The notes: generated by a model not told the origin, from the sequence alone. Positions 26,412 to 54,163 are shown, numbered from the stretch's first letter. The stretch: 64,000 bases of DNA from Candidatus Woesebacteria bacterium (GCA_016432365.1 CP066686.1:128355-192354); one strand, 5' to 3'. Made by a program: numbers and translations.

Positions 26412-26451
26412 ATTAATTATTCCTGTGATACAGGAGTCGTCCCGCACTGAG

Positions 26452-26533: not shown

Positions 26534-26537
26534 AGTG

Positions 26538-26611: not shown

Positions 26612-26671
26612 TTATAAAGCACCCTGCGCTCGCCAACTGGCTAAAGCTACGGGTACGAGTCTACTAGCTAT

Positions 26672-27226
26672 TTAACTATTTCCCGGCAGCTTTTTTCCTA
26701 CCCAGTCCGTAAATTTATCGATTCCGGATGCGGGCACCTCTTCAAGAGGTAGATAGGCAGATATCTCTTTTGTGATTTTTTCTTTCACTGACGGCTCTAT
26801 CACCATCTCGATTCTTCCCGGGATTAAACCTGTATCAATAACCAAGAGTTCCTGATCAAATCTTTTGGTAAACCAAAATCTATTTAAAAAACTCCACGAT
26901 GTCAGGTTGTTGCCGATTTTTATTCCTTTACTGGTTATTTTGTATTCGATTCTTTCCGGCTCCACCGTAGATAGAACATAATACAAAAAAACAAGTGCAA
27001 TAATTAAAAGTACAGGCATAAACCCTTCGGCAAAAAAAAGTACCAATCCCAAAATCCCAGCCATCGCAAAAACTGTTACAAAAAACTGCTTGTCACGCCT
27101 TTTAAACGGACGGGCCGGAGCGGACCAGCTAACCAATTCTCTCTCGGGTTCGCGCCTAACAACCACAGCCTGTGGCTGACTTTCTTGATCTTTGGCAGGA
27201 TCCATATAACTCGTAGTATACCTCAA
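26672..27226 (-). CDS. membrane protein, hypothetical
   Basis: Two TM helices (FFVTVFAMAGILGLVLFF…PVLLIIALVFLYYVL). Confidence 0.45.
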   Translation of the reverse strand: MRYTTSYMDPAKDQESQPQAVVVRREPERELVSWSAPARPFKRRDKQFFVTVFAMAGILGLVLFFAEGFMPVLLIIALVFLYYVLSTVEPERIEYKITSKGIKIGNNLTSWSFLNRFWFTKRFDQELLVIDTGLIPGRIEMVIEPSVKEKITKEISAYLPLEEVPASGIDKFTDWVGKKLPGNS

Positions 27227-27273
27227 ATGACAGTTCCGTTCCAGAGGCTGTAAACTGATATAATACGCTTGTT

Positions 27274-27358
27274 GGAGGATATGCCGAGCGGCTAAGGCAA
27301 AGGTTTGCTAAACCTTGACCACGCAAGTGGTCGGTGGGTTCGACTCCCTCATCCTCCG
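27274..27358 (+). tRNA. tRNA-Ser(GCU)
   Basis: GGAGGATATGCCGAGCGGCTAAGGCAAAGGTTTGCTAAACCTT…long variable arm…GGTTCGACTCCCTCATCCTCCG. Promoter CTGATATAATACGCTT sits directly upstream. Confidence 0.8.
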
Positions 27359-27522
27359 CTCGTCAGAGTTAGACCTTTACGCTTCGTTTCTGCGTAGCAG
27401 AAACTTTGCTATTTTTGGTCTACTCTTCCTCTCAAAATTGCTTTGCAATTTTGGAAGAAGAAACGGCAAAGCGGAAAGCAAAAGCGATAGCGATCTGCGA
27501 ACAGTATAGGAAATTTCGACGA

Positions 27523-27607
27523 GGAGAGGTCGCATAGCGGTCTAGTGCAGCGGTTTACTAAACCGCCGTATCGCAAGATACCGAGAGTTCGAATCTCTCC
27601 CTCTCCG
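27523..27607 (+). tRNA. class II (long variable arm) tRNA with apparent ACU anticodon; identity uncertain
   Basis: GGAGAGGTCGCATAGCGGTCTAGTGCAGCGGTTTACTAAACCGC…CCGAGAGTTCGAATCTCTCCCTCTCCG. Acceptor, D, T and variable arms fold well. Anticodon stem is GCGGT/ACCGC and the loop TTACTAA places ACT at positions 34-36; discriminator is G. Confidence 0.5.
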
Positions 27608-27633
27608 CACTGATATAATTGATTGTCCAACGA

Positions 27634-27715
27634 GGTGGGCGGGCAGGACGGTAATGCGCGGGTCTTGAAAACCCGTGAGCGAAAGCTCTAACAGGTTCGA
27701 CCCCTGTGCCCACCG
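27634..27715 (+). tRNA. tRNA-Ser(UGA)
   Basis: GGTGGGCGG…CGGGTCTTGAAAACCCG…long variable arm…AGGTTCGACCCCTGTGCCCACCG. CTGATATAAT lies 15 nt upstream. Confidence 0.75.
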
Positions 27716-27809
27716 CTTTCACCCGCCGAAGCCTAGAGCGAAAGAGGGCTTCGGTTGGGTTTCAGCGGTCGAAGACCGCCAGATACCTGCGGTGTGTGCC
27801 GCAAAAAAA

Positions 27810-33026: not shown

Positions 33027-33390
33027 GGGGACGATCGGTTTCGACGAGAGCTCTTTAACAAAACTGCAAGCGGACTTTTATCTGTAGTCCTTAAAAATGG
33101 GTTAAAAAACTAAAGCTAAATCTTACGATTCAGCTCCCCGTTTCCAGATGGCATTCGCCTAAGGAATGGGTGTCCTTTAATTTGATTCTCGACCGAATTA
33201 GATGGGCATAAACCTGTTCGAGATGCTGTATAAATCTTATGATTTAGAGATTTATAAATAAGCCAATTACATCTTACCTTGAAATTTCTTGTTGATTAGA
33301 TAAGTTCAAGGGAAATTAAAAAATCAAATAAGCTTGTAGATGTTTTGTTTTAATGTTTTTCGGACGCGGGTTCGATTCCCGCCGTCTCCA
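33027..33390 (+). ncRNA. ssrA: tmRNA (SsrA)
   Basis: 5' GGGGACGATCGGTTTCGACG pairs with 3' CGTCTCCA. T arm is GGACGCGGGTTCGATTCCCGC. A candidate tag ORF reads …GCTAAATCTTACGATTCAGCTCCCCGTTTCCAGATGGCATTCGCCTAA (…MAFA*). Sits downstream of smpB. Confidence 0.8.
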
Positions 33391-33452
33391 CTCACATTCG
33401 TCGTTGCGCCATCGGTAATCGATAGTGCTCGGGTACTTCGTGTTTTGCACAC

Positions 33453-36447: not shown

Positions 36448-38268
36448 TTACAGTTTTTCTATATTAAACAAGCTTGACTTAAGTCCTATATATCCTGGTG
36501 CCCTAAGATTGAATGCCTCTTTAAATTTAGTCCCGTTTATCGTTATTGACCCTTTGTTGGTAGAAAAAGTAAGGCTTTGTGTCGATCCGTCATTTCCATA
36601 GACAACTGAAACCCCTGAAACAGAACTGTAACCCCCGATTCCTTGTAATTCTGCCAAGGAATACGGATTGTGTCCATTTCCCAAACAGTCTACGGGCCAT
36701 ATTCTACCAATATCTCCATTTCCATCCAAAACGTATCGAGCATTTAAAATATCTGCCATTTCTTCTGATTTCAGCCATGGATTGTTTCTATTACAGCTTT
36801 TTCCGCTTCGATCTTTATACCAACCTTTGTAGAACCATGGTGATCCGCCCGCAATTTCATAAGCATTATTTGGCCAACCACCCTGGCCATTTGATGTATC
36901 CCATAAATTTGGTGTCGTGTAGCCACCACTAGAATAACTGAAGGTATATCCACCAGCGGTAGAAGCATACCACGAAGAAAAAGGTTTTCCTCCCGTCACA
37001 AGCACCCACCCAGACGTGTCGTTTACGGCGGTCTCCCAATTACCACCTTTGTTTGTGCTTTTATAAACTTGGCAATCCTCACTTGGGCATATTTCGCCAC
37101 CTCTCGCCAAGGCGTACGACCTTGCCGCCACTGCCTGCGCTCTTAAGGCCGCCATTCCACCACTTCCCCCCCACGATTCTGGAATCTCATAAATTCTTTT
37201 TGTATAAGTCTCAATATTTACCGTCTCATCAATCCATCTACCACCCTTAGAGGCACACTGAGAGAAAGACAAGTTGCCTGAGAGGCTACAACCTTTAATA
37301 TGGATGTTTGCTCCTGTTCCGTAACTTTTATTTATTTCTATTCCACCATAATAGGCGTGCAAAATATCTTCTGCTGATTGCCCACTCTTTGCTCTCCCAT
37401 AAGCACCATATTGACTCATGCCTTTTCTGTGCGGTGCACCATATGAAAAAGCGGCAAATGCTGGTCTAAAAGGAGGGTCACAAAAATTACTCGATCCAGG
37501 TTTTCCGGAACAAGGTTCAGCAGAAGCTGGGACATCACCTATCGATGTAGAGAACCCTCCCGCTTTGGCAGCAGCTAATTCATTTTGTTTGGCAGAAAGG
37601 GAACTAAGGTAGCTCTCCACTTTTGCCACCTCCCCCGCCAAAAATTTTTGCTTTTCGGCAACCTGCGCTTGAAGTGAGGATAAATTTGCTTTATTTTTTT
37701 CTAAACTCTGCTTGTCAGTTTTAAGTTTGGATAGATCAGTTCCATACTGCTCCATCGTCTTTCTGTCTTCATCTGCCGCCTTTTGCCGAAAACTAATTTC
37801 TTGGAACGCTTGCGAGGCGCTATCAGAGAAAATAAAAGGGGTGATTGGATCGTACAAACGCATGAAGGTGTAGTGATTTTTGGCTTTTCCTTCAAATATT
37901 TCTTTTGTATAAGCCAAATCTTCCTCCCTTTTATCGATTTGTTTGGCAAGATTCACAAGTTGTTTTCCCAAATTTGAAATTTTGGCATTGAGGTCTGCTA
38001 TCTGTTTGTTTAGGGATGCCAGATCTGCCTTGTTCTTTTCCTGGGCGGGAGAAAGGGCGTTTATTTCTCTTTGAATTTGGGAGATTTGACAATCGTAATC
38101 TGAGGCGGGACACTCCTGAGCCTTGACAAAAGTGAAGGCTGAAAACAAAATTACAAGCACGAATATCGAAACTCGAAACAAATTCCAAATCTTAAATTTT
38201 AAATTTAAAACATTTGGATTTTGATATAGTTTAAAATTTCGGATTTCGAATTTCGAATTTAAAAGCAT
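36448..38268 (-). CDS. SpoIID/LytB-domain protein with N-terminal TM and long coiled coil
   Basis: GMSQYGAYGRAKSGQSAEDILHAYYGGIEI SpoIID/LytB motif; the N-terminus is rich in heptad-like repeats (LASLNKQIADLNAKISNLGKQLVNLAKQI). Confidence 0.6.
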   Translation of the reverse strand: MLLNSKFEIRNFKLYQNPNVLNLKFKIWNLFRVSIFVLVILFSAFTFVKAQECPASDYDCQISQIQREINALSPAQEKNKADLASLNKQIADLNAKISNLGKQLVNLAKQIDKREEDLAYTKEIFEGKAKNHYTFMRLYDPITPFIFSDSASQAFQEISFRQKAADEDRKTMEQYGTDLSKLKTDKQSLEKNKANLSSLQAQVAEKQKFLAGEVAKVESYLSSLSAKQNELAAAKAGGFSTSIGDVPASAEPCSGKPGSSNFCDPPFRPAFAAFSYGAPHRKGMSQYGAYGRAKSGQSAEDILHAYYGGIEINKSYGTGANIHIKGCSLSGNLSFSQCASKGGRWIDETVNIETYTKRIYEIPESWGGSGGMAALRAQAVAARSYALARGGEICPSEDCQVYKSTNKGGNWETAVNDTSGWVLVTGGKPFSSWYASTAGGYTFSYSSGGYTTPNLWDTSNGQGGWPNNAYEIAGGSPWFYKGWYKDRSGKSCNRNNPWLKSEEMADILNARYVLDGNGDIGRIWPVDCLGNGHNPYSLAELQGIGGYSSVSGVSVVYGNDGSTQSLTFSTNKGSITINGTKFKEAFNLRAPGYIGLKSSLFNIEKL

Positions 38269-38311
38269 CGCCTTTCATTATACCAGCCAAAAATGGTAAA
38301 ATATCTTTAGG

Positions 38312-38725
38312 ATGAAAAAGAAATTACTTATGGCTGCATTTGGGATGACGCTACTCCTGCAAACGACTATCTCCACCAAGGTTGTTTTTGCAGACGCTCT
38401 CGGAACCGCCAAATGCGGAGCCGATGAAATTGATACCGCAATCGGATGTCTAAATGTTCTGGGAAGCCAGGAACAATTTTTTGGAAGCCTTCTTAAGTGG
38501 GCCGTGGGGGTAGGTGGTGGAATTGCGTTCCTTTTGATTGTCTATGCCGGATTTATGGTAATGACATCAGCCGGTGACCCGGAGCGCCTTAAGGCAGGGC
38601 AGGAGCTTTTAACCAGCGCTATTTCAGGTTTGATTTTACTCATTTTTTCGATATTTATACTCAAATTCATAGGAGTTGATATACTAGGACTATGTACGTT
38701 TGGTTTTGGAACTTGCAGCCCTTAA
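38312..38725 (+). CDS. pilin-like two-TM protein, paralog 1 (VirB2/TrbC-like candidate)
   Basis: Signal peptide plus TM1-MTSAGDPERLKAGQELLTSAISGLILLIF-TM2; first gene of an 8-gene overlapping array. Confidence 0.55.
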   Translation: MKKKLLMAAFGMTLLLQTTISTKVVFADALGTAKCGADEIDTAIGCLNVLGSQEQFFGSLLKWAVGVGGGIAFLLIVYAGFMVMTSAGDPERLKAGQELLTSAISGLILLIFSIFILKFIGVDILGLCTFGFGTCSP

Positions 38726-38729
38726 ATAT

Positions 38730-39047
38730 ATGCCACTTAACCTTAATGGAGTACAAACTTTAGCCGGAATTCCACTTGAACAATTTGGAATTACGTCCAT
38801 GGGAACTTTAATTTCAAAAATCCTACCTTTTGTCTTTGGTGCTGCCGGAATTGCCCTCCTAATTTATCTTGTTATGGGCGGGTTCCAAATGATGACATCA
38901 CGCGGAGACCCCAAAGCCATGCAAGGGGCACAAGGCAAAATTACCAACGCTCTATTAGGTTTTGTCATTATCGCTGTCGCTTATTTATTTGTTAAGATAA
39001 TCGGACAGGTTTTTGGTATTACGGCATTTTCAGGTATCTTTATCTAA
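38730..39047 (+). CDS. pilin-like two-TM protein, paralog 2
   Basis: …MGGFQMMTSRGDPKAMQGAQGKITNALLGFVIIAVAY…. Confidence 0.55.
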   Translation: MPLNLNGVQTLAGIPLEQFGITSMGTLISKILPFVFGAAGIALLIYLVMGGFQMMTSRGDPKAMQGAQGKITNALLGFVIIAVAYLFVKIIGQVFGITAFSGIFI

Positions 39048-39344
39048 ATGGACATTAATTCTGTATTCAAATCGCCTTTTACGGCCATTACCGACACAGC
39101 TAAGTTGGTAACTTTGTTTTTAAACACCGCGTTTGTCATTTCCGGGCTTATTCTTCTCTTTTTCTTCATCATGGGTGGAATCGGGATGATTTCAAGCGCC
39201 GGACAATCCGATCCCCAAAAAGCCGAACAGGCAAAAAAAACTGTTACTAGCGCCCTAATTGGCTTTATTATTGTATTTGCATCCTATTGGATAGTACAAT
39301 TAGTGGGGAATATCACAAATGTTCCTATTTTACCAAATCAATAA
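39048..39344 (+). CDS. pilin-like two-TM protein, paralog 3
   Basis: …MGGIGMISSAGQSDPQKAEQAKKTVTSALIGFIIVFASY…. Confidence 0.55.
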   Translation: MDINSVFKSPFTAITDTAKLVTLFLNTAFVISGLILLFFFIMGGIGMISSAGQSDPQKAEQAKKTVTSALIGFIIVFASYWIVQLVGNITNVPILPNQ

Positions 39345-39695
39345 ATGACACTTTTATCAGACGCTAACCCTTTTGGATCGATTGCTGCCCCGTCGGCTCT
39401 CTCACAATATGGAACAGACGCAGGTCCTGCAATCGGAGGTCTAATTGAAAGGGTTCTTCAGTTTCTAATTGTCGGTGCCGGAATTTATGCCCTGTTTAAT
39501 TTAGTGCTTGCGGGATACGATTTTATGGCTGCCGGGGACGATGCCAAAAAAGTTGCCGGTGCCTGGGCAAAAATTTACCAGACAATAATTGGTCTTGCCT
39601 TCTCAGCGGGAGCTTTTGTTCTTGCAGCACTATTTGGACAGTTGATATTTGGCAAATGGGACTTTATTCTTAGCCCCTCTATTCCAACACTATGA
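39345..39695 (+). CDS. pilin-like two-TM protein, paralog 4
   Basis: …LAGYDFMAAGDDAKKVAGAWAKIYQTIIGLAFSAGAF…. Confidence 0.5.
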   Translation: MTLLSDANPFGSIAAPSALSQYGTDAGPAIGGLIERVLQFLIVGAGIYALFNLVLAGYDFMAAGDDAKKVAGAWAKIYQTIIGLAFSAGAFVLAALFGQLIFGKWDFILSPSIPTL

Positions 39696-40078
39696 ACAAC
39701 ACTTTAGCGCAAATTAACCTGTTTCCGTCCGGAGGGTTCAAAGGTTTTGGCAAACTAGGCTTAGAGACCGACGCGGCCACAAGTGCCGACAGGGTGTTTA
39801 CAAACTTTATTTCATCCGCGATCGGACTCATTACAATCATTGCCATAATTTGGTTTGTGTTTTTGGTAACTACCGGTTCTTTTGCGTTTATGACCGCTGG
39901 TGGGGATAAACAATCCCTGGAAACTGCAAGGAAAAAGATTATGAACGGCCTTGTTGGTTTAATGGTTTGTATATTCGGAATCTTTGTTGTTAGGTTTATC
40001 GGATATCTTATTGGTATTCCCGACATTTTGAATTTCGTCTCATTATTTTCTTTATTAACCGGCAACAATGTTCCATAA
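39692..40078 (+). CDS. pilin-like two-TM protein, paralog 5
   Basis: …TGSFAFMTAGGDKQSLETARKKIMNGLVGLMVCIFGIF…. Confidence 0.55.
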   Translation: MNNTLAQINLFPSGGFKGFGKLGLETDAATSADRVFTNFISSAIGLITIIAIIWFVFLVTTGSFAFMTAGGDKQSLETARKKIMNGLVGLMVCIFGIFVVRFIGYLIGIPDILNFVSLFSLLTGNNVP

Positions 40079-40445
40079 TTCACAAAACTTACTAGCGGGA
40101 GCTCCTGTAAATGAGGAGATTACAAACCCTGTTTTTGGGCCGGGTTTAAAAGGTGTGTATTCCTCCGGGCCAACCGCATTTCTGTCAACCTTTATCCCCA
40201 ACTTTATTGGTTTGGTATTTGTCATTGGCGTTTTGGTTTTCTTCTTTATGCTTATCTGGGGAGCCGTTCAATGGATTTCCTCCGGTGGTGATAAACAGGG
40301 TCTCGAGGCAGCACGCGGAAGAATTACAAGTGCTGTGATCGGAATTGTTATTCTTTTGGGGGCTTTTGCGGTTATAAATGTTGTAGAGACGTTCTTTGGC
40401 CTAAATATTCTGACTATTGACATTGGTCCCTTGGTAATTCAATAA
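40068..40445 (+). CDS. pilin-like two-TM protein, paralog 6
   Basis: …WGAVQWISSGGDKQGLEAARGRITSAVIGIVILLGAF…. Confidence 0.55.
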   Translation: MFHNSQNLLAGAPVNEEITNPVFGPGLKGVYSSGPTAFLSTFIPNFIGLVFVIGVLVFFFMLIWGAVQWISSGGDKQGLEAARGRITSAVIGIVILLGAFAVINVVETFFGLNILTIDIGPLVIQ

Positions 40446-40453
40446 TATACATA

Positions 40454-40795
40454 ATGACAAATTTATTAGCAGTTACAAGCGATTCGATTAACTTACAACC
40501 ACCCAGCAACACTCAGTTTGCCCAACTTGGGGGCCTTACAATCCCCGGTATCATTTCTGCACTTATCAGGCTCACCGTGGTCGTTGCCGCGATTGTATTC
40601 TTCTTTATTTTGGTGATCGGTGGAATTCGCTGGATCGCATCCGGTGGAGACAAAGCTCAAACAGAAGCAGCCAGGAATCAAATCACAGCGGCTTTGGTCG
40701 GACTTGTCATCGTTTTTGCAGCTTGGGCCATAGTCGCTCTTATCAACACCTTCTTCCATATCGACATCTTCTCCCTTGCAATCCCAACGGTTTAA
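40454..40795 (+). CDS. pilin-like two-TM protein, paralog 7
   Basis: …IGGIRWIASGGDKAQTEAARNQITAALVGLVIVFAAW…. Confidence 0.55.
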   Translation: MTNLLAVTSDSINLQPPSNTQFAQLGGLTIPGIISALIRLTVVVAAIVFFFILVIGGIRWIASGGDKAQTEAARNQITAALVGLVIVFAAWAIVALINTFFHIDIFSLAIPTV

Positions 40796-40839
40796 TCCCG
40801 CTTGCTCAAAGTTATCTACTGGTTTAGAATTGTTATTGT

Positions 40840-41115
40840 ATGAAAATCGCAACGATTGAGGATTTAGGAACTGTTTTTCAAAGTCTTGTTGGGGCGCTTT
40901 TGGGCTTTGCCGGAATTGCCCTCTTTGTGCTTCTTTTAATGGGAGGTTTTAAATATATAACTAGCGGAGGCGACCCCAAAGCCGTAGAGGGTGCGCAAAA
41001 AACACTTACTTACGCAATTGGGGGCTTGATCATAATTTTGATTTCCTATCTTATTCTCGTCTTGATCAAAACCATTACGGGCGTAGATATTACCAATTTC
41101 AAGGTAGTTCAATGA
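40840..41115 (+). CDS. pilin-like two-TM protein, paralog 8
   Basis: …MGGFKYITSGGDPKAVEGAQKTLTYAIGGLIIILISY…. Confidence 0.55.
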   Translation: MKIATIEDLGTVFQSLVGALLGFAGIALFVLLLMGGFKYITSGGDPKAVEGAQKTLTYAIGGLIIILISYLILVLIKTITGVDITNFKVVQ

Positions 41116-41127: not shown

Positions 41128-43890
41128 ATGTCAGAACACAAATCTGCACCTCAAATTTTAAAATTTTTTAAATTCCCTTTGCTTGTTTTCGTTTCCTTTT
41201 TGTCATTATTAATTATTAATTCTTCATTATTAATTAAAGTCGCCCGCGCGGCGAACGCCATTCCACCTCCAGGCCGGATTCCCTGCGATCCAACATTGGT
41301 TGCAGACCCGGAATACGCCTCCGATAGACCATATCAAGCCTCCCCCTGCGAGGGTGACGGGGCAACCATAACTTACTGGTGTGGAAACGATGTTGTCGTA
41401 ATGTTGGGAACTTCCAAAACCCCTTATTGTGACAGTGCAAACGGACAACAAACAGTCTGCCCTTGTAACGGCGGGCCAAACTGCGACCACACCGGCAGCA
41501 ATATGCAAACAATTGACATCGATTTAACAAATGTAGAACTTCCGATCTTGGGAAACACCAACGATACAAATAACAGCCAAACCGGAGACACAATTGATGA
41601 CGGTACAAAAGTAAGTAACTATGTTGCCTGGTACTTGGGAGGGGTTGACAACCGAGCTGAATATCCGGGGGATGCGACCACACCTGAAGGCCTTTCAAGG
41701 ATTGTTGACTTCTCCGGCCCAACCAGGAGGCTTCTCCCATCAATTATTCAAGAGGCCACCAGATCTGCAACGGTCGCTTCTGCAAACAATCAAGTGACTT
41801 ATACCGATAGCGAAACAAACCAAACCGTAACCGAAGCCGAGAACCATAATCAAATTGTGGTTTGTGGCAAAGAAGGAAACGGAGGATTTTTCGGTTGGAT
41901 CCTGGATGTTTTAAATCTTGGTAAAACCAATCCAATAGATTGTTACACCGGCGGTGGGTCACCCACCCAAGGAACGGGGTATAGGCTTAACGACTGGCAG
42001 GGCGACCTGTCTTTTTGGAATTCCGGCATTAATGCGATTGTCAGCGGCTTGGCCTCTCTTTTCCCGACCATTCCGGCTAGCGTCATCCAGGAATCCGTTG
42101 GCGATCATTGGAACAGCCGCCTCCCCCCACTTCCCTGGTGTGACAAAGACTGCAAACCTTTTGCAAGCGACGCACTGTATCAAAAGGCTTACAATGAATG
42201 GCAGGGAAAAACTTGTGTGTTGATTCCCGGAATAAATTTAGTTGTCTGCATAGACAACATTTTTGTACCAAACAAATACGCTGATCTTTTTCCGTACATT
42301 CCACTAGCAAAGAATATTGACAAAAAGGGCGCCCACATGATCCTCGACACTCACCTGGACGCACCAAAGGCCACAATTGAGTGCGGATCCCAGGGTTGTT
42401 ACGAAATTATTCATAATCCCCAACTTTACCTTGCTCATTCGGTTGAAAATTATCAGCTTTCAAGCCTACTCAAAAATACATATCTTCCCGGGGAGGCTTC
42501 TGGTAGTGCCGCTGCGACCCTTCCGACTGATGTTGAAAACAACGTAAACTCCGGTTTAAGTGGATGTAGAATTATTCCAAGTAGAAGCAACTCCGGGGAC
42601 GATGCCACATTTGATGAACCAAAAAGCCATATTGAAGTTGACGTAAGCTACATTGCAACAGATTTCCGTTGTACAAATATTCACGAGGTTTGCGACGACC
42701 CACAATGTACAACTACTCACTGGGAAGGAAACTGTTCTTCCGATGTCTATGCAACAATCGCAACAGTATCCAAAACCCCATTTGCCAACGAAATTTGGAA
42801 AAACACAGTGGCAGGAAGTGATTCAATCTTTAGAAGAATTTACCCCAAAACCGGTGTCGGGGCACCAATCCGATGCATTGCCGATAATCCCGCTCAATCC
42901 AAAGCCACATACACCGTTGACCCAAACAGCTCTAAGGAGGTTCAACTTTGGAGGATTATTGAACCTGACAAAAGTGCAGTAACAGGCCCCGGAGGAAACC
43001 AGGGATCTGACGAAATTGAAGCCCAACTTTACTACCCACATTATGGCGGCGTTCTGGATTACTTTCTAAACGGAATCCAACAAGCCTTGCGTCCCAAGGG
43101 ATTTGGCCCGGGACAACCTCAAAACGGACAATATTGTACAAATGTCGCTTGCGGAGAATTGCCGGATTTACCCAAAGCTTCCGGTTCATGTAATTTAGGT
43201 GGCGTCAGTTCCAAAGTGGGAAATATTCCGCAGGGCTTAAAAGATATCGTTTCAGCCGCGGCCCAAACATACAGTGTTCCGCCAGGGCTGATAATAGGAG
43301 TTATGTACGGCGAAGGAGCGTTTAACACAGACGCGAGCGGAAACTACACAAGGTATAACTGGACAGAAGAAAACGTAAAAAACTGGGCTTCGTGTGAGCC
43401 TCTACCTAACTGCTCGGCGAGTGCCGATCCTATAAACAGCGTTGTACCTTTTTACCACACATATTGGGACAAAATCGCCGACGATATTCTTCCCGACTTA
43501 AAGAAAATCGACCCAACCAAAACCCAGGCCGATCCGTGTAATTTACTGGACATTACTTTTGGTCTGGCAAAAGATCTGCACGACAACGCCGGAGGAGCGG
43601 GAATTGCAGGAAATTCGTGTTTTGGAATCACTTTAACAAGCACAATCCCATCGTCGTGCGATTGGAGTGACGATCAATACGAAACGTCAATAAAAGTCTG
43701 GGAAAACGGCGCTGACCCGGCTTGTTATACCAAACCCGGGAGTTGTTTATTGGGAACTGGCGGCGACACATGCCCCTTTGATACCGGTAATACTCCAGCT
43801 CCGGGGTGCGAATCGGCTGGAGCACATTCAACAGACCCCGGGGTAAATAGCCACAATGCGTGTGTGTGGGATGTGTCTCATGGTAATTAA
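41128..43890 (+). CDS. large secreted cysteine-rich protein (920 aa), hypothetical
   Basis: Signal/TM N-terminus; about 40 Cys spread through a low-complexity Asn/Thr/Gly-rich sequence; no confident catalytic motif. Confidence 0.5.
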   Translation: MSEHKSAPQILKFFKFPLLVFVSFLSLLIINSSLLIKVARAANAIPPPGRIPCDPTLVADPEYASDRPYQASPCEGDGATITYWCGNDVVVMLGTSKTPYCDSANGQQTVCPCNGGPNCDHTGSNMQTIDIDLTNVELPILGNTNDTNNSQTGDTIDDGTKVSNYVAWYLGGVDNRAEYPGDATTPEGLSRIVDFSGPTRRLLPSIIQEATRSATVASANNQVTYTDSETNQTVTEAENHNQIVVCGKEGNGGFFGWILDVLNLGKTNPIDCYTGGGSPTQGTGYRLNDWQGDLSFWNSGINAIVSGLASLFPTIPASVIQESVGDHWNSRLPPLPWCDKDCKPFASDALYQKAYNEWQGKTCVLIPGINLVVCIDNIFVPNKYADLFPYIPLAKNIDKKGAHMILDTHLDAPKATIECGSQGCYEIIHNPQLYLAHSVENYQLSSLLKNTYLPGEASGSAAATLPTDVENNVNSGLSGCRIIPSRSNSGDDATFDEPKSHIEVDVSYIATDFRCTNIHEVCDDPQCTTTHWEGNCSSDVYATIATVSKTPFANEIWKNTVAGSDSIFRRIYPKTGVGAPIRCIADNPAQSKATYTVDPNSSKEVQLWRIIEPDKSAVTGPGGNQGSDEIEAQLYYPHYGGVLDYFLNGIQQALRPKGFGPGQPQNGQYCTNVACGELPDLPKASGSCNLGGVSSKVGNIPQGLKDIVSAAAQTYSVPPGLIIGVMYGEGAFNTDASGNYTRYNWTEENVKNWASCEPLPNCSASADPINSVVPFYHTYWDKIADDILPDLKKIDPTKTQADPCNLLDITFGLAKDLHDNAGGAGIAGNSCFGITLTSTIPSSCDWSDDQYETSIKVWENGADPACYTKPGSCLLGTGGDTCPFDTGNTPAPGCESAGAHSTDPGVNSHNACVWDVSHGN

Positions 43891-43945: not shown

Positions 43946-44302
43946 ATGAATAATCAAAATTATAAAAGCAATTTACAAGACAGGTGTTATAAATTTAGTT
44001 TAGATTTAATTTCCCTACTAGATACACTTCCCAACAAAAGAAGTTCTTGGGCAATTTCTGACCAACTAGTTAGAAGTGGAACGAGTATCGGCGCAAATCT
44101 CGTAGAAGCAACGGCTTCCAGTTCAAGACTGGAGTTTAAAAAGTTCCACGAAATAGCCTTAAAGAGTGCAAACGAATCCAAATACTGGTTGATGCTCTTA
44201 AATGATTCACAAAAAGTTGATACAATTGATTTGTTAAGAGAAGTAACCGAGTTATCAAACATGATAGCTTCTGGTATACTGAAACTTAAAGGTAAAATAT
44301 AA
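43946..44302 (+). CDS. four-helix-bundle protein (23S rRNA intervening-sequence protein family)
   Basis: VRSGTSIGANLVEATASSSRLEFKKFHEIALKSANESKYWLMLL fits the family motif (RS..SI.aNiaEg…F…ia.gS..E…W). Confidence 0.65.
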   Translation: MNNQNYKSNLQDRCYKFSLDLISLLDTLPNKRSSWAISDQLVRSGTSIGANLVEATASSSRLEFKKFHEIALKSANESKYWLMLLNDSQKVDTIDLLREVTELSNMIASGILKLKGKI

Positions 44303-44388: not shown

Positions 44389-46101
44389 ATGAAAAAACTG
44401 CTCTTAATTCTTCTTTCTTCATTCTTAATTATTAATTCTTTATTGTTTCCTTTTGCTGTAAATGCTCAACGCGGGGGACCACCCCCCACTCCAGCGCCCT
44501 CTGCCGCCCCATCAACTGCTCCAACCTGGTACAACCAAAGCTTTAAAGATTGGCAAACAAAAGTTTTTGATACCAAAAACCCAAGCGATATTTTTGGAGA
44601 ACGGTATACTGCAGCTCAGGTGCAATGGGTCATTTACAGTTTGTGGTCTTTCATAATTTATGCACCTTCCCAAGGAAATTCGGAAACCCAGGCCGTCATT
44701 ACTTGTCTCTTTGCTTCCACAGTAGACGTAACCGGATGTATGGACGCTTTTGCCAAAGCTATAGCAGAAAACCCAAGACCTCCTAGCGTTGCGCAAAAAA
44801 CAGATAACGAAAACATTTTTCAACTTGTCTTTGCATCCGACAGACCACTCTCCGGAATCTCTTTCGTAAAAGAGAAGGTTCAGAATTTTAGTCTTGTGCC
44901 CAGTGCACACGCCCAAACCGTCGGCTTCGGTTTTGGTGCTTTGTCCCCAATTCAAGGTGCCTGGAAGGCAATTAGAGACATCTCTTTTGGAATGTTTGTG
45001 CTTGTAGCTATAGTTTTCGCTTTTATGATAATGTTCCGGGTAAAACTTTCCCCACAGACTGTAATTTCTGTACAATCCGCTCTACCCAAAATTATAATCG
45101 CCTTAGTTTTGGTGACATTCTCGTATGCGATTGCCGGATTTTTGGTAGATTTAATGTATGTCGTGATTGGCTTAATTAGCTTTGCTGCCACTAGTATATA
45201 TGCATCAACACTTGGTGTCCCACTCGCAAACCTCGATTCTTCTTTTTATTTCAAACTCATGACCTTGGGCCAGACTTCCGGCATACCTGTAAATTTATCT
45301 GTTTTCGGGCTCTCTGCAGTTTTATGTTTTATTTTTATACTACCATTCATGATTCTTCTGATAATAATCGGGGCAATAATTATGGCGGCCTTTCCTCCAT
45401 CTATACCGGTGGTTTTATTTATACTAGTCGTTGCTATTGTAATAGTCTTTATAGTTTTCATTTGGAACGTTCTTAAAACCGTCTGGGCCCTTGTTAAGGC
45501 GTTTGTAAACATACTTTTGCTTACAATTTTTGCTCCAATTCAAATTGTCGCGGGAGTGCTTATTCCAAGCCTTGGTTTTGGTCAATGGATAAAAAGTTAT
45601 GTTTCAAACTTGGCTGTTTTTGTAGTCACGGGTACGCTGTTTTTATTTTCTATACTGTTTATTGTTTTAGGCATCGTAATAGGATTCCAAGATTTCGGTG
45701 CAGCTACCGCGACCATTATTGCGTTTTTTGTGAGCCCAGTTTTGGGTACTCAGGTATTTAATGCTGCTTTCCCTGTTAGTTACGCTGCTTGGCCGCCACT
45801 TTTGGGCATGGGGTCGAGTGCAGCTGTCGGACTTCTTTTCCTGGGTGTAAGTTTTGTATTATTTACCCTAACACCAAAGGCAACTGAAATAATTCAAGGA
45901 CTAATGAGCGGCAAGCCCTTTGCATACGGAACTGCTGTTGGTGAAGCTATGGCGCCCGTAGGATTAGCTTATGGGCAAACGGCCGGACCAGTCCTTGAAG
46001 CTTACAGGAGAGCCAATCTTGAAGAGATGGTAAGGACACGTCAGAAAGATATAACGGATCTGGTTGGGAAAATTATCCCCAAGAAAGCAGCCGGAAAATA
46101 A
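44389..46101 (+). CDS. polytopic membrane protein (signal peptide + periplasmic domain + ~8 TM), VirB6/TrbL-like candidate
   Basis: Topology only; no sequence-level proof. Confidence 0.45.
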   Translation: MKKLLLILLSSFLIINSLLFPFAVNAQRGGPPPTPAPSAAPSTAPTWYNQSFKDWQTKVFDTKNPSDIFGERYTAAQVQWVIYSLWSFIIYAPSQGNSETQAVITCLFASTVDVTGCMDAFAKAIAENPRPPSVAQKTDNENIFQLVFASDRPLSGISFVKEKVQNFSLVPSAHAQTVGFGFGALSPIQGAWKAIRDISFGMFVLVAIVFAFMIMFRVKLSPQTVISVQSALPKIIIALVLVTFSYAIAGFLVDLMYVVIGLISFAATSIYASTLGVPLANLDSSFYFKLMTLGQTSGIPVNLSVFGLSAVLCFIFILPFMILLIIIGAIIMAAFPPSIPVVLFILVVAIVIVFIVFIWNVLKTVWALVKAFVNILLLTIFAPIQIVAGVLIPSLGFGQWIKSYVSNLAVFVVTGTLFLFSILFIVLGIVIGFQDFGAATATIIAFFVSPVLGTQVFNAAFPVSYAAWPPLLGMGSSAAVGLLFLGVSFVLFTLTPKATEIIQGLMSGKPFAYGTAVGEAMAPVGLAYGQTAGPVLEAYRRANLEEMVRTRQKDITDLVGKIIPKKAAGK

Positions 46102-49858: not shown

Positions 49859-50383
49859 CTACTTTATCTGAAAGGCAAAAAGGATAAAACTCAGAAGAAA
49901 ACCTACAATAAGAAGGTTTTTGGACAAGTTAAATAATTTTCTTTTTGGCAAATAGGAAAATTTTGACAGGTTGTATATTTCAAGGGCGTACTGCTCCACA
50001 GTCTTTTCTTTATCCGCAAGCATCGTTTTTATTGCTTCATAATAATCCTCCTGGAATTTATAACCCGCAATTCCGTGGGTATAAAGTTTACTGTCTTTCT
50101 GTCCCCTTTTATCCAAAAACCCGGGTGGGTTCAGTGCCAAAAGTCCTGTGACGGCGGACAAAGAAGAAAAAAGCGCAAGGACTAAAAGGTAATAGTGAAT
50201 TGTGGGCCCGCCGGATATGTACCCGGTCGCCGAAAATGCAAAAAGTGCAGAACCTAAAATTACAAGGTTATTTACTTGAATATCTATGTGTTCCGTATTG
50301 CCGTTTATTTTGTGAAGAACCTCATTAAGTACAAATACGTCATCTATCTCCTCTTTTAATTCTTTTATTATGTCCTGCGCCAT
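49859..50383 (-). CDS. membrane protein, hypothetical
   Basis: Three to four TM helices. Confidence 0.4.
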   Translation of the reverse strand: MAQDIIKELKEEIDDVFVLNEVLHKINGNTEHIDIQVNNLVILGSALFAFSATGYISGGPTIHYYLLVLALFSSLSAVTGLLALNPPGFLDKRGQKDSKLYTHGIAGYKFQEDYYEAIKTMLADKEKTVEQYALEIYNLSKFSYLPKRKLFNLSKNLLIVGFLLSFILFAFQIK

Positions 50384-50515: not shown

Positions 50516-51580
50516 ATGGAACAACACGCGATACCTCAAAACATAAGTTCGTACCAATTCAGGCTGGTTGGGGACATGACCCTTAAACAATTCTTCCAAC
50601 TTGCAGGAGGACTTTTGGTAGCTCTTATCTTTTATTCGGCCCCACTTGTGGGGATAATTAAATGGCCTTTTGTAATTATCTCCGCAATCTTAGGTGTTGC
50701 TTTGGCGTTCCTCCCTCTTGAAGAACGCCCTCTGGAAAAGTGGATTTTTGCATTTTTTAGGGCAATTTATGCTCCTACGGAGTTCTTTTGGAAAAAAATA
50801 ACCATTCCTCCTAAAATATTCCAGGACGAGCCGGCTGTTCCTGTTGCTACCCCCGGGCCCCAACAGCAAGCCGTCGAACAGTATTTAGCCTCTCCTGGAC
50901 AAAAAACAGAGCCCACCAACAAACTTGAAAATGCAGAAAAAGGGTTTTTTGCAACCTTGATGGGGATTGCTTCCGGCCTTGTTTCCCCGACAAAAACTCC
51001 CGCAGTTGTCCCTGTCCCACAGCAACCTGAGCCTGTAGCTAAAACCGAAATGGCCATCCCCCAAAACATACCGGTTAAAGTTCCTGCTCAGATGCCGCAT
51101 CTTGTTGTAGAAGAAAAGCGTCAGGAACCGGTTTACACCTCCCCTCAAATATCAGCAACGCAAGTAAACCCGAGTATTGTGGGAAATGAGATGGTTTCAA
51201 CAACCGCAGCCATTTTCTCGGTAGACGCGGCTCCCCCCAACCCCCCAACATATCCAAATGTGGTAGTAGGGCAAGTGGTGGATGCTGAAAGAAAAATAAT
51301 AGAAGGAGCCATTATGGAAATAAGAGACTCTTCCGGGCGCCCGGTACGTGCCTTAAGAAGTAACAAGGTGGGGCATTTTATTACCATTACTCCCCTGGAA
51401 AACGGAAAATATCAAATTGTCACTGAAAAAGAAGATCATGAATTTACTCCCGTGTCATTTGAGGCGGTAGGGCAAATCATTCCACCGATTTTGGTTCAGG
51501 GAAGAAGAATTGTTCAAGAAGTAATGCCAACAGCAGCTATTCCAACCCAAACTCAAGCTAACGTTCCTGCAATGCAATAA
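50516..51580 (+). CDS. PrgI/VirB3-like two-TM protein with Pro-rich linker and C-terminal carboxypeptidase-regulatory-like beta domain
   Basis: N-terminus FRLVGDMTLKQFFQLAGGLLVALIFYSAPL…FLPLEERPLEKWIFAFF (two TM, PrgI-like); C-terminus GQVVDAERKIIEGAIMEIRDSSGRPVRALRSNKVGHFIT…GKYQIV. Confidence 0.4.
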   Translation: MEQHAIPQNISSYQFRLVGDMTLKQFFQLAGGLLVALIFYSAPLVGIIKWPFVIISAILGVALAFLPLEERPLEKWIFAFFRAIYAPTEFFWKKITIPPKIFQDEPAVPVATPGPQQQAVEQYLASPGQKTEPTNKLENAEKGFFATLMGIASGLVSPTKTPAVVPVPQQPEPVAKTEMAIPQNIPVKVPAQMPHLVVEEKRQEPVYTSPQISATQVNPSIVGNEMVSTTAAIFSVDAAPPNPPTYPNVVVGQVVDAERKIIEGAIMEIRDSSGRPVRALRSNKVGHFITITPLENGKYQIVTEKEDHEFTPVSFEAVGQIIPPILVQGRRIVQEVMPTAAIPTQTQANVPAMQ

Positions 51581-51582: not shown

Positions 51583-52269
51583 ATGATTAATTTACCCAAA
51601 ATTCCATATTTGTCGGTTCCCGATAAGCCTATTTTGTCCACAACTCAGGAACATTTGCCCATAGCCGATGTAACTAACGATGTGGTTATTTACAAAGACG
51701 GCGGCGCCGCACTTGTAATGGAATCGACATCCCTTAACTTCGGACTTTTGAGCGAAAAAGAGCAGGCTGCCGTAATTACCGCCTACGCTGCCATGATTAA
51801 CTCACTTTCTTTTTCGGTACAGATTGTTGTTAGGACTCAAAGAAAAGACATCAGTAGTTACATAAGCTTTCTGGATGAACAGGCTGCCAAAATAACACAC
51901 CCGCTTCTTGCACGTCTTATGCGTGAATACAAAGGGTTTATACTCGACTCGGTTAAAAAGAAGAACGTTTTGGGAAAAAGATTTTTTGTTGTGCTTTACC
52001 TGTCCCCTCTTGAACTGGGGGTTGGTAAATCGATAGCATCCTTAACCAAACGCGGGGTTACACTTCCTTTCCCAAAATCGTATGTTATTAAAAAAGCAAA
52101 GATTACTTTGTATCCAAGACGTGACCACTTGATCCGCCAGGCCGGAAGACTCGGTATAAAGTTCAGGCAATTAACAACCGCGGAACTAATAGACCTATAT
52201 TTTACAGTTTACAATCCCGAAAAACCTGCCGTTAAGAAAGAGCCGGAAGTGATACTAGAGCACAAGTAA
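51583..52269 (+). CDS. VirB4/TraC N-terminal-domain-like protein (split VirB4?)
   Basis: LPIADVTNDVVIYKDGGAALVMESTSLNFGLLSEKEQAAVITAYAAMINSLSFSVQIVV resembles the N-domain of VirB4/TraC-type ATPases; the ATPase gene follows directly. Confidence 0.35.
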   Translation: MINLPKIPYLSVPDKPILSTTQEHLPIADVTNDVVIYKDGGAALVMESTSLNFGLLSEKEQAAVITAYAAMINSLSFSVQIVVRTQRKDISSYISFLDEQAAKITHPLLARLMREYKGFILDSVKKKNVLGKRFFVVLYLSPLELGVGKSIASLTKRGVTLPFPKSYVIKKAKITLYPRRDHLIRQAGRLGIKFRQLTTAELIDLYFTVYNPEKPAVKKEPEVILEHK

Positions 52270-52309: not shown

Positions 52310-54163
52310 ATGAATAAAGATCAAACAAACACAAATACGACACCTATAGCACCACCAATACAACCTGCAGTTTCCGGGCAACAACAACCGCCCCAGCAGG
52401 AGCTTAAGCCAAAGTTGGTCAGTCCAAATATTGCAATATCTCAAGGACTTACCGTCTTTGATGCTATTGCACCACAAAATATCGAGGTTGATTTTGATTA
52501 TTTCAAAATAAACGATGTTTATTTTAGAACCATATTCGTGGGTGGCTACCCAAGATTTGTTGCCCCGGGTTGGCTTGAACCTGTGGTTAATTTTGATTCA
52601 AGTTTGGATATTTCTTTTTATGTCTACCCTGTTGACGGAAAATCGGTCCTGGATGACTTGAGAAGAAAGATCGCTGAAATGGAGGCGGAAATTTCTACCG
52701 ACATAGAACGCGGAAGAATCGTAGATCCTTCAACACAGGCCAAACTCGAAGACGCCCGAGCACTACAGGAACAACTTGTAAAAGGAATTGAAAGGTTTTA
52801 CGAATTCAGTTTTTATATAACTATTCCTGCAAGCTCTGTAGAAGAATTAAATCACGTAACCAAACAGATTGAATCCCAACTTGGATCGCTCTTAATTGTA
52901 AGTAAACACGCGCTTCTGGATCAGGAAGCCGGATTTTTATCCACCGCTCCGTTTGGAATGGACAGATTGAATGTTACAAGGAATATGGATACCACCAGTG
53001 TGGCTACAACTTTCCCACTTACCTCATCCGAACTTTCAAGTGATCGTGGAGTTTTGTATGGCATCAATTCTCAAAATGAATCTTTTATCATTTTCGACAG
53101 ATTCTCTCTTCAAAACAGTAATATGGTAATCTTTGCTACCTCCGGAGCCGGAAAGTCATACTTTGTTAAACTTGAAGCCCTTCGCTCTCTTATGACCGGC
53201 ACCGAGGCAATTATTATAGACCCCGAAAGTGAATATAAAACACTGGCTGATGCGGTAGGAGGAGAATATATATCCTTCTCTTTCAACGCTCCCGCCAAAA
53301 TTAATCCGTTTGACTTAGCCCAAATCCGCGAAGAAGGAGAAAACCAATTGGGAATTAAAATTCTTTCGCTTCATTCCCTAATGAAAGTAATTATGGGTGT
53401 TATTACCCCAACACAGGAGGCAATGCTCGACCGCGCACTGATAATGACCTATCGCAACAAAGGAATTACTATGGACCCGGACACACAAGGCAAAGAACCA
53501 CCCCTTATGGAGGATTTGTACAAAACCTTAATCGGAATGGAAGTCCCCGACGCTCTAGACCTTGCAGCCCGCATTGAAAAATTTGTAAGAGGGTCCTTTG
53601 TCGGAATTTTCGATAAACAAACAAATATTAATATCACCAATCCTTTTACAGTTTTCTCGGTTAAAGATTTGCAGGAAACTCTTAGACCAATCGCTATGTT
53701 TATTATTCTTGATTACATTTGGACAAGGGTCAAAAAAGACATCAAGAAACGCATCTTAATCGTAGATGAGGCCTGGCACATGATGAAATACCCTGATACT
53801 GCCCAATTCCTTTGGAGTGTCGTTAAAAGGGCACGTAAATACTATTTAGGCTTAACAACAATTACTCAGGATGTAGAAGACTTTTTGGGACAAGACATCG
53901 GTAAAGCTATTGTTACAAACAGCGCTCTACAGGTTCTTTTGAAACAGTCTCCTGCGGCAATAGATAAAATTGGTGAAGTTTTTTATCTTTCCCAAGGAGA
54001 AAAGAATTTGCTTCTTGCTGCAAATGTGGGAGAGGGAATATTTTTTGCAGGACCTCACCATGCCCCAATTCGTGTTGTGGCTTCAACTGAAGAGGATAAG
54101 TTAATCACAACCAAACCTCTTGAGGTTGCAAAAATAAACCCAAATGCATATGAAGCAAAATAA
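52310..54163 (+). CDS. VirB4/TraC/TrbE-family type IV secretion ATPase
   Basis: Walker A FATSGAGKSYFVK, DPESEY motif, Walker B ILIVDEAWHMM. Confidence 0.8.
   Translation: MNKDQTNTNTTPIAPPIQPAVSGQQQPPQQELKPKLVSPNIAISQGLTVFDAIAPQNIEVDFDYFKINDVYFRTIFVGGYPRFVAPGWLEPVVNFDSSLDISFYVYPVDGKSVLDDLRRKIAEMEAEISTDIERGRIVDPSTQAKLEDARALQEQLVKGIERFYEFSFYITIPASSVEELNHVTKQIESQLGSLLIVSKHALLDQEAGFLSTAPFGMDRLNVTRNMDTTSVATTFPLTSSELSSDRGVLYGINSQNESFIIFDRFSLQNSNMVIFATSGAGKSYFVKLEALRSLMTGTEAIIIDPESEYKTLADAVGGEYISFSFNAPAKINPFDLAQIREEGENQLGIKILSLHSLMKVIMGVITPTQEAMLDRALIMTYRNKGITMDPDTQGKEPPLMEDLYKTLIGMEVPDALDLAARIEKFVRGSFVGIFDKQTNINITNPFTVFSVKDLQETLRPIAMFIILDYIWTRVKKDIKKRILIVDEAWHMMKYPDTAQFLWSVVKRARKYYLGLTTITQDVEDFLGQDIGKAIVTNSALQVLLKQSPAAIDKIGEVFYLSQGEKNLLLAANVGEGIFFAGPHHAPIRVVASTEEDKLITTKPLEVAKINPNAYEAK

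Follow-up and report, generated by a model that had tools for sequence, protein, structure and literature searches.

Tandem arrays of VirB2-like pilin genes have been described in Patescibacteria. Quinonero-Coronel et al. (2025) reported 441 arrays of 2–11 genes from 383 assemblies, most abundant in Microgenomatia and Saccharimonadia and with ~25% identity within arrays (PMC12102498). They defined an array as at least two PF18895 or PF04956 genes, in tandem or with one non-pilin gene between them, at most 20 CDS from a virB4 of the Patescibacteria/MPF-FATA-like clade (PMC12102498). In Ca. Southlakia epibionticum ML1, both the T4SS and its pilin array are essential (PMC10633639; PMC12857230), and this array comprises six pilins (Wang et al. 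2023, PMC10633639). Cryo-ET of the Saccharimonadia parasite Mycosynbacter revealed a tube ~9 nm wide and 61–70 nm long, with a tip density, joining it to its host (PMC11880426). Monoderm conjugative T4SSs normally lack pili (PMC12102498; PMC10633639), and a 2024 perspective called the role of Patescibacteria T4SS “completely unknown” (PMC11665869).

We analyzed a 64-kb stretch of DNA (64,000 nucleotides, hereafter the window) from a Candidatus Woesebacteria MAG (Microgenomatia). A sequence-only reading had pointed out eight tandem pilin-like genes in it, here p1–p8, and had tentatively placed the organism in the CPR, in agreement with the origin of the genome. By the published definition the eight genes form an array: they are contiguous, VirB4 is the tenth gene after p8, the host is a Patescibacterium and the mean identity is 24.9%. 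They share with other Patescibacteria arrays, including the six-pilin array of Southlakia ML1 and the “Sec secreted array” of TM7x, the PF18895 family, a tandem arrangement within the 2–11 range, ~25% identity, a chromosomal monoderm-type T4SS with PrgI, TrsD and VirB4, a lack of relaxase or coupling protein nearby, and the vicinity of dnaA/dnaN. Microgenomatia, the class of the window, was itself named as array-rich. The window holds a system of a kind already described. New here is a set of eight, in fixed order, kept across related species. The text of PMC12102498 has no mention of orthology between arrays or of fused pilins, whereas the octet in the window is orthologous position by position.

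Array and surrounding locus

The array spans positions 38312–41115 (Table 1), with locus tags from HYV90_01050 onward, and NCBI annotates the pilin genes only as hypothetical proteins. The eight consecutive ORFs of 91–137 aa, separated or overlapping by a few nucleotides, were all found as the sequence-only reading had listed them. For p2, a TTG at 38700 would give an alternative form of 115 aa; the 105-aa form is the one called by NCBI and by one Logan gene call. From p1 to p8 the intergenic spacing was +4 (or −26), 0, 0, −4, −11, +8 and +44 nt. The p2/p3 and p3/p4 junctions read TAAATG, p4/p5 is an ATGA overlap, p5 and p6 overlap by 11 nt, and the gene for a 920-aa protein starts 12 nt past p8. 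These tight or overlapping junctions suggest that p1–p8 are made together, from one operon running into the 920-aa gene. A scan for sigma-70 promoters and terminators between 36.3 and 52.4 kb gave 34 and 23 hits, respectively, with no excess over shuffled sequences (29.8 and 17.0), and the scan therefore gives no operon boundaries.

Table 1 Features of the pilin array and its locus in the window.
Feature	Position	Strand	Length (aa)	Evidence and remarks
SpoIID-domain protein	36448..38268	−	606	PF08486 E 5.6e-12; divergent neighbour of p1
Pilin p1	38312..38725	+	137	PF18895 33.7 bits (cutoff 26.6)
Pilin p2	38730..39047	+	105	From ATG 38730; PF18895 38.7 bits
Pilin p3	39048..39344	+	98	PF18895 42.2 bits
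Pilin p4	39345..39695	+	116	PF18895 15.9 bits, below cutoff; divergent member
Pilin p5	39692..40078	+	128	PF18895 21.1 bits, below cutoff
Pilin p6	40068..40445	+	125	PF18895 32.1 bits
Pilin p7	40454..40795	+	113	PF18895 34.2 bits
Pilin p8	40840..41115	+	91	Shortest of the eight; 15-residue N-tail; PF18895 29.2 bits
920-aa protein	41128..43890	+	920	N-terminal membrane anchor; 34 Cys; lysozyme/lytic-transglycosylase-like fold
Polytopic membrane protein	44389..46101	+	570	9 predicted TM segments (hydropathy scan)
PrgI/VirB3-like	50516..51580	+	354	PF12666 (PrgI) 27.6 bits (cutoff 27)
TrsD-like	51583..52269	+	228	NF041427 (TrsD) E 2.9e-5 and NF045975 E 5.1e-6, both below cutoff; PF26593 (TraC-like) weak
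VirB4-family ATPase	52310..54163	+	617	NF045971 371.8 bits (cutoff 325); PF19044 E 2.6e-30

The array lies near dnaN/dnaA and ~11 kb upstream of the PrgI/VirB3-like, TrsD-like and VirB4 genes. The VirB4 is of the monoderm CD1110 type, judged by its NF045971 score, and the TrsD-like protein resembles the N-terminal region of VirB4. We found no relaxase or coupling-protein genes near the T4SS. The order SpoIID (opposite strand), eight pilins, Cys-rich protein, polytopic protein, PrgI, TrsD and VirB4 recurs in related genomes, whose names are Woesebacteria or Microgenomates. The upstream SpoIID gene on the opposite strand was present in nearly all related loci, and the synteny of the array with PrgI, TrsD and VirB4 is conserved across dozens of species. 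The proposal that the array heads a locus with VirB4 and PrgI/VirB3-like genes was therefore borne out here and in nearly all relatives.

For the 920-aa, 570-aa, 795-aa, 231-aa and 984-aa neighbours, Pfam and NCBIfam searches at lax thresholds gave no usable matches. The lysozyme/lytic-transglycosylase-like fold of the 920-aa protein was seen by fold search alone and missed by HMMs, and a phmmer search of its C-terminal part against the PDB returned nothing. On the predicted fold, this protein may be an analogue of VirB1, an enzyme acting on the host wall, or both. The 570-aa protein, whose gene is kept downstream of the 920-aa gene in ~33 related loci, is a candidate VirB6 analogue by its TM prediction, with no HMM match.

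Family membership and predicted topology

PF18895 (T4SS_pilin) matched all eight proteins, with E-values from 9e-11 to 1.4e-2. Six exceeded the gathering cutoff of 26.6 bits (29.2–42.2 bits); p4 and p5 scored below it, with the same region aligned. Against a family profile built from the eight window proteins, and thus including p4 and p5 themselves, these two had E-values of 5.8e-35 and 3.9e-40. Their orthologs in three other genomes (L004, L007, L010) scored between 1e-27 and 1e-38. The same profile matched 83,402 cluster representatives, and it found no further member among window ORFs of 60 aa or longer. PF18895 matches in eight of eight, together with this specificity within the window, are not due to chance. 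By profile matching, p1–p8 are members of the Patescibacteria T4SS pilin family PF18895, as the pilin proposal had anticipated.

The link to proven conjugative pilins, for which PF04956 (TrbC/VirB2) had also been suggested, did not materialize: none of the eight matched this family at E-values up to 1. The sole TrbC trace was NCBIfam PRK13871 against p7 (E 0.06), and p2 had a weak VirB3 match (E 0.058). An hhalign comparison of 124 family members with seven verified VirB2/TrbC proteins from plasmid records gave a probability of 7.5% (E 0.0047), which is no evidence of homology despite an alignment in register. A PDB sequence search with the profile of the eight found no pilin, the best match being an unrelated viral glycoprotein (E 0.057). 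This lack of demonstrable homology to proven conjugative pilins (PF04956, PDB profile, hhalign) speaks against a filament.

Compared with A. tumefaciens VirB2, RP4 TrbC and F TraA (PF04956), the window proteins are likewise small, with two hydrophobic helices, a short basic loop, a predicted N-out/C-out orientation, and VirB3-like and VirB4 genes alongside. They differ in having no PF04956 match, in the hhalign result, and in the lack of a signal peptide in seven of eight. Moreover, those diderm systems have one major pilin, against eight distinct subunits in a monoderm here. The Mollicutes ICE proteins Mbov_0395/MMCAP2_0565 (NF045849, pilin-like conjugal transfer) also have a monoderm T4SS context, with a VirB4 of the related Mbov_0397/CD1110 kind. 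All eight window proteins align over nearly the whole 80-residue NF045849 model, with 14.5–30.3 bits, all below the 40-bit equivalog cutoff, and the Mollicutes genes are single. By these scores p1–p8 would be distant relatives of that family at best. Type IV and Flp/Tad pilins were rejected: no class III signal peptide (G/F-T-L-I-E or G/XXXXEY) stands at any of the eight N-termini, each protein carries two TM helices, and no T4P/Flp Pfam family matched. Type IV pili and type II secretion pseudopili, with their major and minor pilins, are alike in function only, in that several conserved, co-encoded subunits form one filament and some of them take special places, for instance in a tip complex; their fold and biogenesis are different, and their subunits have one TM helix.

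A hydropathy scan found two TM segments in each of the eight proteins, as had been claimed. The connecting loop has 20–32 residues with 2–4 K/R, and it is richer in K/R than the tails, which are neutral or acidic. From hydropathy and charge, p1–p8 are predicted to be hairpins in the cytoplasmic membrane, with both termini outside and the short basic loop inside. The AF2 model of p7 is a helical hairpin (H30–62 and H67–101, pLDDT 82.8), and fold searches return generic helical hairpins. A loop motif close to the one that the sequence-only reading described, (M/I)(T/S/A)(S/A)xGD(P/K), is present in seven of the eight, with a two-residue insertion in p3; p4 departs from it and reads MAAGDD. Identity among the paralogs has a maximum of 36.7%, and the only residues shared by all eight are D and one G.

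A hydrophobic N-terminus, claimed for all eight, was found in p1 only. This is also the only protein with a Sec-type signal peptide. In p2–p8 the N-tails before TM1 are 15–45 residues long and polar, neutral or acidic. The lack of a signal peptide in seven of eight, unlike VirB2/TrbC/TraA, is another point against a filament. In p1, an ectodomain with a conserved C-x(n)-TAIGC motif is combined with the two-TM core, and in its orthologs the signal peptide is followed by an insert of 0–150 aa that is hypervariable and Cys-rich.

Could p1–p8 be unrelated small membrane proteins, such as holins or bacteriocin immunity proteins, that stand near a T4SS by chance? Short two-TM proteins are generic, and the fold searches were uninformative. 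Yet no holin or immunity family in Pfam or NCBIfam matched; the sole bacteriocin-related match, p3 to PF08129 (enterocin family, E 0.053), was sub-threshold and far weaker than its PF18895 match. Against such proteins also stand the specific PF18895 matches in eight of eight, the sub-threshold scores against the pilin-like family of Mollicutes ICEs, and a synteny with VirB4, PrgI and TrsD kept across dozens of species. The HMM results and the conserved T4SS synteny effectively refute this explanation, and we give it a negligible chance.

Orthology, selection and fused pilins

We compared 28 species-level Woesebacteria genomes with a complete array, namely 25 GTDB species loci, two metagenome loci and this window. 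The 25 GTDB loci had exactly eight pilins in the order p1 to p8, and copy number and order were constant in all 28 genomes. In view of this fixed number and the published range of 2–11 genes in 383 Patescibacteria assemblies, an array of eight is not unusual here, contrary to what the sequence-only reading had supposed. In a neighbour-joining tree of the 224 pilins, each position formed its own group, with groups 6 and 7 broken by one protein (L043_6); p6 is the closest paralog of p7 (39%). The nearest neighbour was at the same position for 223 of the 224. Orthologs shared 48–68% identity per position (mean 62% for p4), compared with 26% between positions. On this positional orthology, a recent tandem amplification was rejected.

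At the seven positions with estimable dS, dN/dS was 0.02–0.18; p5 was saturated. Values were 0.022 for p7 and 0.030 for p8, and p7 is among the two most conserved positions. The fastest-evolving positions are p1 and p2, with p2 ahead (dN 0.36). By these sequence comparisons, the octet is a set of ancient, position-specific orthologous groups under purifying selection in Woesebacteria.

These results bear on the idea, suggested for Patescibacteria by Quinonero-Coronel et al. (PMC12102498), that an array supplies a stock of alternative major pilins. Such a repertoire, with its members deployed singly or in exchange for one another, would serve to vary antigens or host range. The “variant subunits” of the sequence-only reading were a similar option. 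The low within-array identity (24.9%), the fast evolution of p1 and p2 and the hypervariable p1 ectodomain would suit such a use. The position-by-position orthology argues against it, with one old group per position and no recent duplication or gene conversion, as do the eight copies in constant order in 28 species and the low dN/dS wherever it was estimable. In addition, the tight or overlapping junctions imply co-expression and not a choice among genes, and different positions are fused collinearly in single polypeptides (see below). We therefore consider a repertoire improbable. Bartonella and Anaplasma also have several divergent VirB2-like genes in tandem in a T4SS locus. Those arrays are read as variation repertoires, whereas here number, order and per-position sequence are kept under purifying selection.

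In other lineages we found multi-domain pilin polypeptides with 2–17 domains each. Among the fusions in which all domains scored at least 50 bits (n = 64), adjacent pairs followed the gene order in 52 cases versus 5. Gene-calling artefacts are an improbable source: the linkers between fused domains look natural, and fusion P0140, the one verified in this way, is an intact ORF in its own contig. VirB2-type pilins have their two ends near each other (cyclic T-pilin, TrbC), and a filament could therefore accommodate collinear fusions. Polypeptides with as many as 17 hairpins in a row, or 34 TM segments, might fit a membrane-embedded assembly better than extraction into a filament.

Such an assembly would consist of p1–p8 as membrane-resident parts of the T4SS translocon, whether as a ring, as a platform or as the base of a stalk, located within the cytoplasmic membrane or immediately above it, with no extended pilus. 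All eight are strongly hydrophobic two-TM hairpins, and natural polypeptides with 6–17 fused hairpins would be hard to extract from the bilayer. Monoderm T4SSs of the class of this VirB4 normally have no pili (PMC12102498; PMC10633639). The weak VirB3 match of p2 and the lack of demonstrable homology to pilus-forming VirB2 point the same way. On the other side are the large secreted Cys-rich ectodomains of the p1 orthologs, a peptidoglycan-lytic-like protein within the same gene string, and the tube of conjugative-pilus width in a Patescibacterium (PMC11880426). The fusions fit a filament too, given the adjacent VirB2-type termini. On balance, a purely membrane-resident assembly is possible, if somewhat unlikely.

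A proposed heteromeric pilus or conduit

We favour, with a probability of roughly 0.55, the reading that p1–p8 are eight non-redundant, non-interchangeable subunits which together build a single heteromeric pilus or conduit of the T4SS. It draws on family membership, predicted topology, positional orthology, purifying selection, T4SS synteny and the domain fusions; from these we infer pilus formation by p1–p8. The eight genes would be co-transcribed, and their products would sit in the cytoplasmic membrane as two-helix hairpins. The monoderm-type T4SS encoded downstream (VirB6-like candidate, PrgI/VirB3-like, TrsD-like and VirB4 ATPase) would extract them from the membrane, a step that would involve VirB4. 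The extracted pilins would then polymerise into one extracellular tube of heteromeric composition, crossing the cell wall and touching the host cell, with a separate structural role for every one of the eight positions, and would have a role in host interaction. The parts likeliest to contact the host or the wall would be the 920-aa protein and p1, which has the signal peptide and the hypervariable Cys-rich ectodomain. We know of no organism in which a pilus made of PF18895-type array proteins has been observed.

A bolder version, which we consider unlikely, is an ordered polar “lance” of set length. The paralogs would form layers from base to tip, gene order would mirror the order of assembly or of neighbours, and p1 and the lytic 920-aa protein would be at the host-piercing end. 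It is drawn by analogy with the ~9 × 60–70 nm cryo-ET tube with a tip density in another Patescibacterium. To our knowledge, conjugative T4SS filaments are built from a single major pilin. If the “lance” were true, it would be a heteromeric T4SS filament unlike these, and would give a molecular identity to the structure by which epibionts tap their hosts.

The only Patescibacterium that is genetically tractable needs its T4SS and pilin array to grow as an epibiont. The 920-aa gene points to a hidden VirB1-like wall-lytic partner, which HMM surveys reported as mostly missing. In Woesebacteria the octet is fixed and ordered, and other lineages fuse the pilin domains collinearly. With these results, the loose idea of host-range variation becomes a testable structural one, in which eight defined subunits make up a heteromeric filament or channel.

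The pilin array and its T4SS locus

Eight plus-strand ORFs (p1 to p8, in gene order) were confirmed exactly where the sequence-only reading had placed them. The proteins have 137, 115 (or 105 from ATG 38730, the start chosen by NCBI and one Logan gene call), 98, 116, 128, 125, 113 and 91 aa. The junctions from p1 to p8 are +4 (or -26), 0, 0, -4, -11, +8 and +44 nt, with a 12-nt gap to the next gene. A hydropathy scan found two TM segments in all eight proteins. With 2-4 Lys/Arg in the loop between them and neutral or acidic tails, the proteins are predicted to form an N-out/C-out hairpin. The loop motif (M/I)(T/S/A)(S/A)xGD(P/K) occurs in seven proteins, p4 having MAAGDD, and mean pairwise identity is 24.9%. 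A hydrophobic N-terminus had been attributed to the whole set, but a signal peptide of that kind was found in p1 only.

All eight matched PF18895 (T4SS_pilin) in a Pfam search, six exceeding the gathering cutoff, and all gave full-length, sub-threshold matches to NF045849, the “pilin-like conjugal transfer protein” of Mollicutes ICEs. Together with the T4SS genes downstream, this upholds the earlier assignment of family and context; that these are unrelated small membrane proteins is highly improbable. A profile built from the eight found no ninth member in the 64-kb window. Exact database matches place the eight genes in a Candidatus Woesebacteria MAG (1.08-Mb contig, locus tags HYV90_01050 onward), which annotates them as “hypothetical protein”.

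The extended -10-like sequence TGGTAAAAT (38294-38302) ends 9 nt ahead of the p1 ATG, within the 43-nt divergent spacer separating p1 from a SpoIID-like gene. By eye, no Shine-Dalgarno-like sequence was evident ahead of any of the eight genes. Both observations suggest that the leader is very short or missing and that translation is coupled.

Features of the window and of loci from other genomes (L-numbers)
Feature	Position	Strand	Remarks
ATP-grasp_2 + Citrate_bind and CoA_binding + CoA-ligase genes	17288-19316	-	Adjacent pair
Five tRNA-Ser, one tRNA-Arg	23238-27716		ARAGORN
tRNA-Ser with anticodon ACT, one of the five	27523-27608
tmRNA	33027-33391		Rfam, 140 bits
p1-p8	38312-41115	+
p1	38312-38725	+
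920-aa Cys-rich protein	41128-43890	+	Downstream of p8
23S-rRNA-IVP gene			Downstream of array, after 920-aa gene
570-aa protein			Downstream of array; nine predicted TM segments
795-aa ORF		-	Downstream of array; no assigned family
231-aa and 110-aa ORFs			Downstream of array; no assigned family
PycTM-like gene			Downstream of array, before PrgI/VirB3-like gene
PrgI/VirB3-like protein			Downstream of array; 27.6 bits (cutoff 27)
TrsD-like protein, 228 aa	51583-52269		Between PrgI-like gene and VirB4; resembles VirB4 N-terminal region
VirB4 ATPase, monoderm CD1110 type			Downstream of array; 371.8 bits (cutoff 325)
984-aa membrane protein			After VirB4
Accessory/defence-type insertions	43946-44302, 49859-50383; L004:8148-8513, 10751-11633, 7232-7663
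Pilin fusion loci	L061:7792-9651; L060:1-940

The 984-aa gene is followed by dnaN, dnaA, rnpA, yidC and jag, marking the region as the chromosomal origin. Pfam and NCBIfam scans found no relaxase or coupling-protein family among the ORFs from the array to dnaN. A PF18895 and PF04956 search across 3,035 Patescibacteria genomes described an MPF-FATA-like T4SS with TrsD, PrgI and VirB4, usually without a relaxase and often adjoining dnaA/dnaN (Quinonero-Coronel et al. 2025, PMC12102498). The TrsD-like ORF corresponds to the accessory component reported as most abundant in Patescibacteria T4SSs. Identity within the published arrays averages 25%, with a maximum of 54% (PMC12102498). Contrary to what had been supposed, an array of eight is not unusual; the Woesebacteria octet is one more array of a type already described. 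The text of that study mentions neither orthology between arrays nor pilin fusions. [quoted passage not shown] 2023, PMC10633639). A 2024 perspective called the role of the T4SS “completely unknown” (PMC11665869).

Elsewhere in the window, two ARAGORN tRNA calls (27274-27359 and 27638-27716) had no Rfam match at gathering score. The short tag peptide predicted by ARAGORN for the tmRNA, GHKPVRDAV, apparently lacks the usual hydrophobic ...LAA-type ending. The ATP-grasp_2/CoA-ligase pair is ATP-citrate-lyase- or citryl-CoA-synthetase-like and appears to be an unexpected component of central metabolism in a reduced CPR genome.

Conservation of the octet

Three independent metagenomic relatives share the gene string of the window: SpoIID (minus strand), the eight pilins, a ~900-aa Cys-rich protein, a ~570-aa polytopic protein, PrgI-like, TrsD-like and VirB4. 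When GTDB species genomes were scanned with the p7 alignment, 42 loci matched. In the 25 Woesebacteria loci whose arrays were complete, there were always eight pilin ORFs, ordered p1 to p8; Levybacteria, Daviesbacteria and other Microgenomatia further removed had 3-11 pilins in other combinations. Across four genomes, identity was 53-81% at the same position versus 17-39% between positions. The nearest neighbour stood at the same position for 223 of 224 pilins from 28 genomes. In their neighbour-joining tree a single branch separated each position except 6 and 7, where the split failed only because of a single protein, encoded by the most distant genome. Against the closest relative, dN/dS was 0.02-0.18 at seven positions, with dS near saturation at some of them and saturated at p5, precluding an estimate there; p1 and p2 evolved fastest, p7 and p8 slowest. 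The octet is thus ancient and fixed in its order, and purifying selection acts on each position (p5 dS saturated). This pattern argues for eight non-redundant roles and makes a repertoire of variants improbable.

The p1 orthologs (loci L007, L010, L011-L043) have in common a signal peptide and a highly conserved two-TM core, separated by a hypervariable Cys-rich ectodomain (0-150 residues, 2-18 Cys) and then a conserved C...TAIGC motif; the p1 of the window is a minimal version. The ectodomain seems to be a tip module or one for host contact.

In one metagenomic relative, 23S_rRNA_IVP and AbiEii genes are inserted among the pilins, none of which is lost. Genes for 23S_rRNA_IVP four-helix proteins, AbiEii, PemK toxin and a PycTM-like protein occupy different points in and around the locus in different genomes, so that it seems an insertion hotspot. 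Woesebacteria-type pilin/T4SS loci also occurred in several public MAG records with the titles “uncultured Gammaproteobacteria”, “Pseudomonadales” or “Alphaproteobacteria” (L012-L015, L017, L024, L025, L027-L029, L031, L040, L044, L048 and protein P0097); these names look like placeholders or mislabels.

Fused pilins and a proposed heteromeric tube

An exhaustive profile search matched 83,402 cluster representatives, with 18,015 of them at E 1e-10 or below. Many top matches (P0121-P0268) were single polypeptides with 2-17 pilin domains head to tail, up to 17 in the 1775 aa of P0136, with natural-looking linkers. The P0140 fusion is an intact ORF in its own contig, and in an NCBI assembly another fusion stands at the head of a pilin array. 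Some fusions (P0121, P0140) carry long Cys/Pro-rich C-terminal extensions. Position-specific HMMs recognized recurrent architectures: p6-p7, p1-p2-p8, p2-p8, p4-p5 and p5-p6. In the 64 fusion proteins with every domain at or above 50 bits, 52 adjacent-domain pairs ascended in gene order, 5 descended and 17 were of the same type. By Rosetta-stone logic, such fusions support physical association of different positions.

Linkage from C-out to N-out agrees with the topology. In VirB2-type pilins the two termini lie next to each other (cyclic T-pilin and TrbC), making the fusions compatible with a filament. As the most likely mechanism (probability about 0.55), the eight hairpins would be co-expressed and inserted N-out/C-out, and a VirB4-powered machine would pull them out of the membrane to build one heteromeric tube, with p1 and the lytic-like 920-aa protein at its wall- or host-facing end. 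Their remaining in the membrane as a translocon assembly is a possible, less likely arrangement. Conjugative pili equal in width the tube of the Saccharimonadia parasite Mycosynbacter, making the latter a plausible product of such arrays. That tube measures 8.6-9 nm across by 61-70 nm in length, lies between parasite and host and has a tip density (cryo-ET, PMC11880426). The new points are modest: a fixed, ordered, orthologous octet, collinear fusions and a hidden, putatively lytic partner. Together they make the heteromer hypothesis testable.
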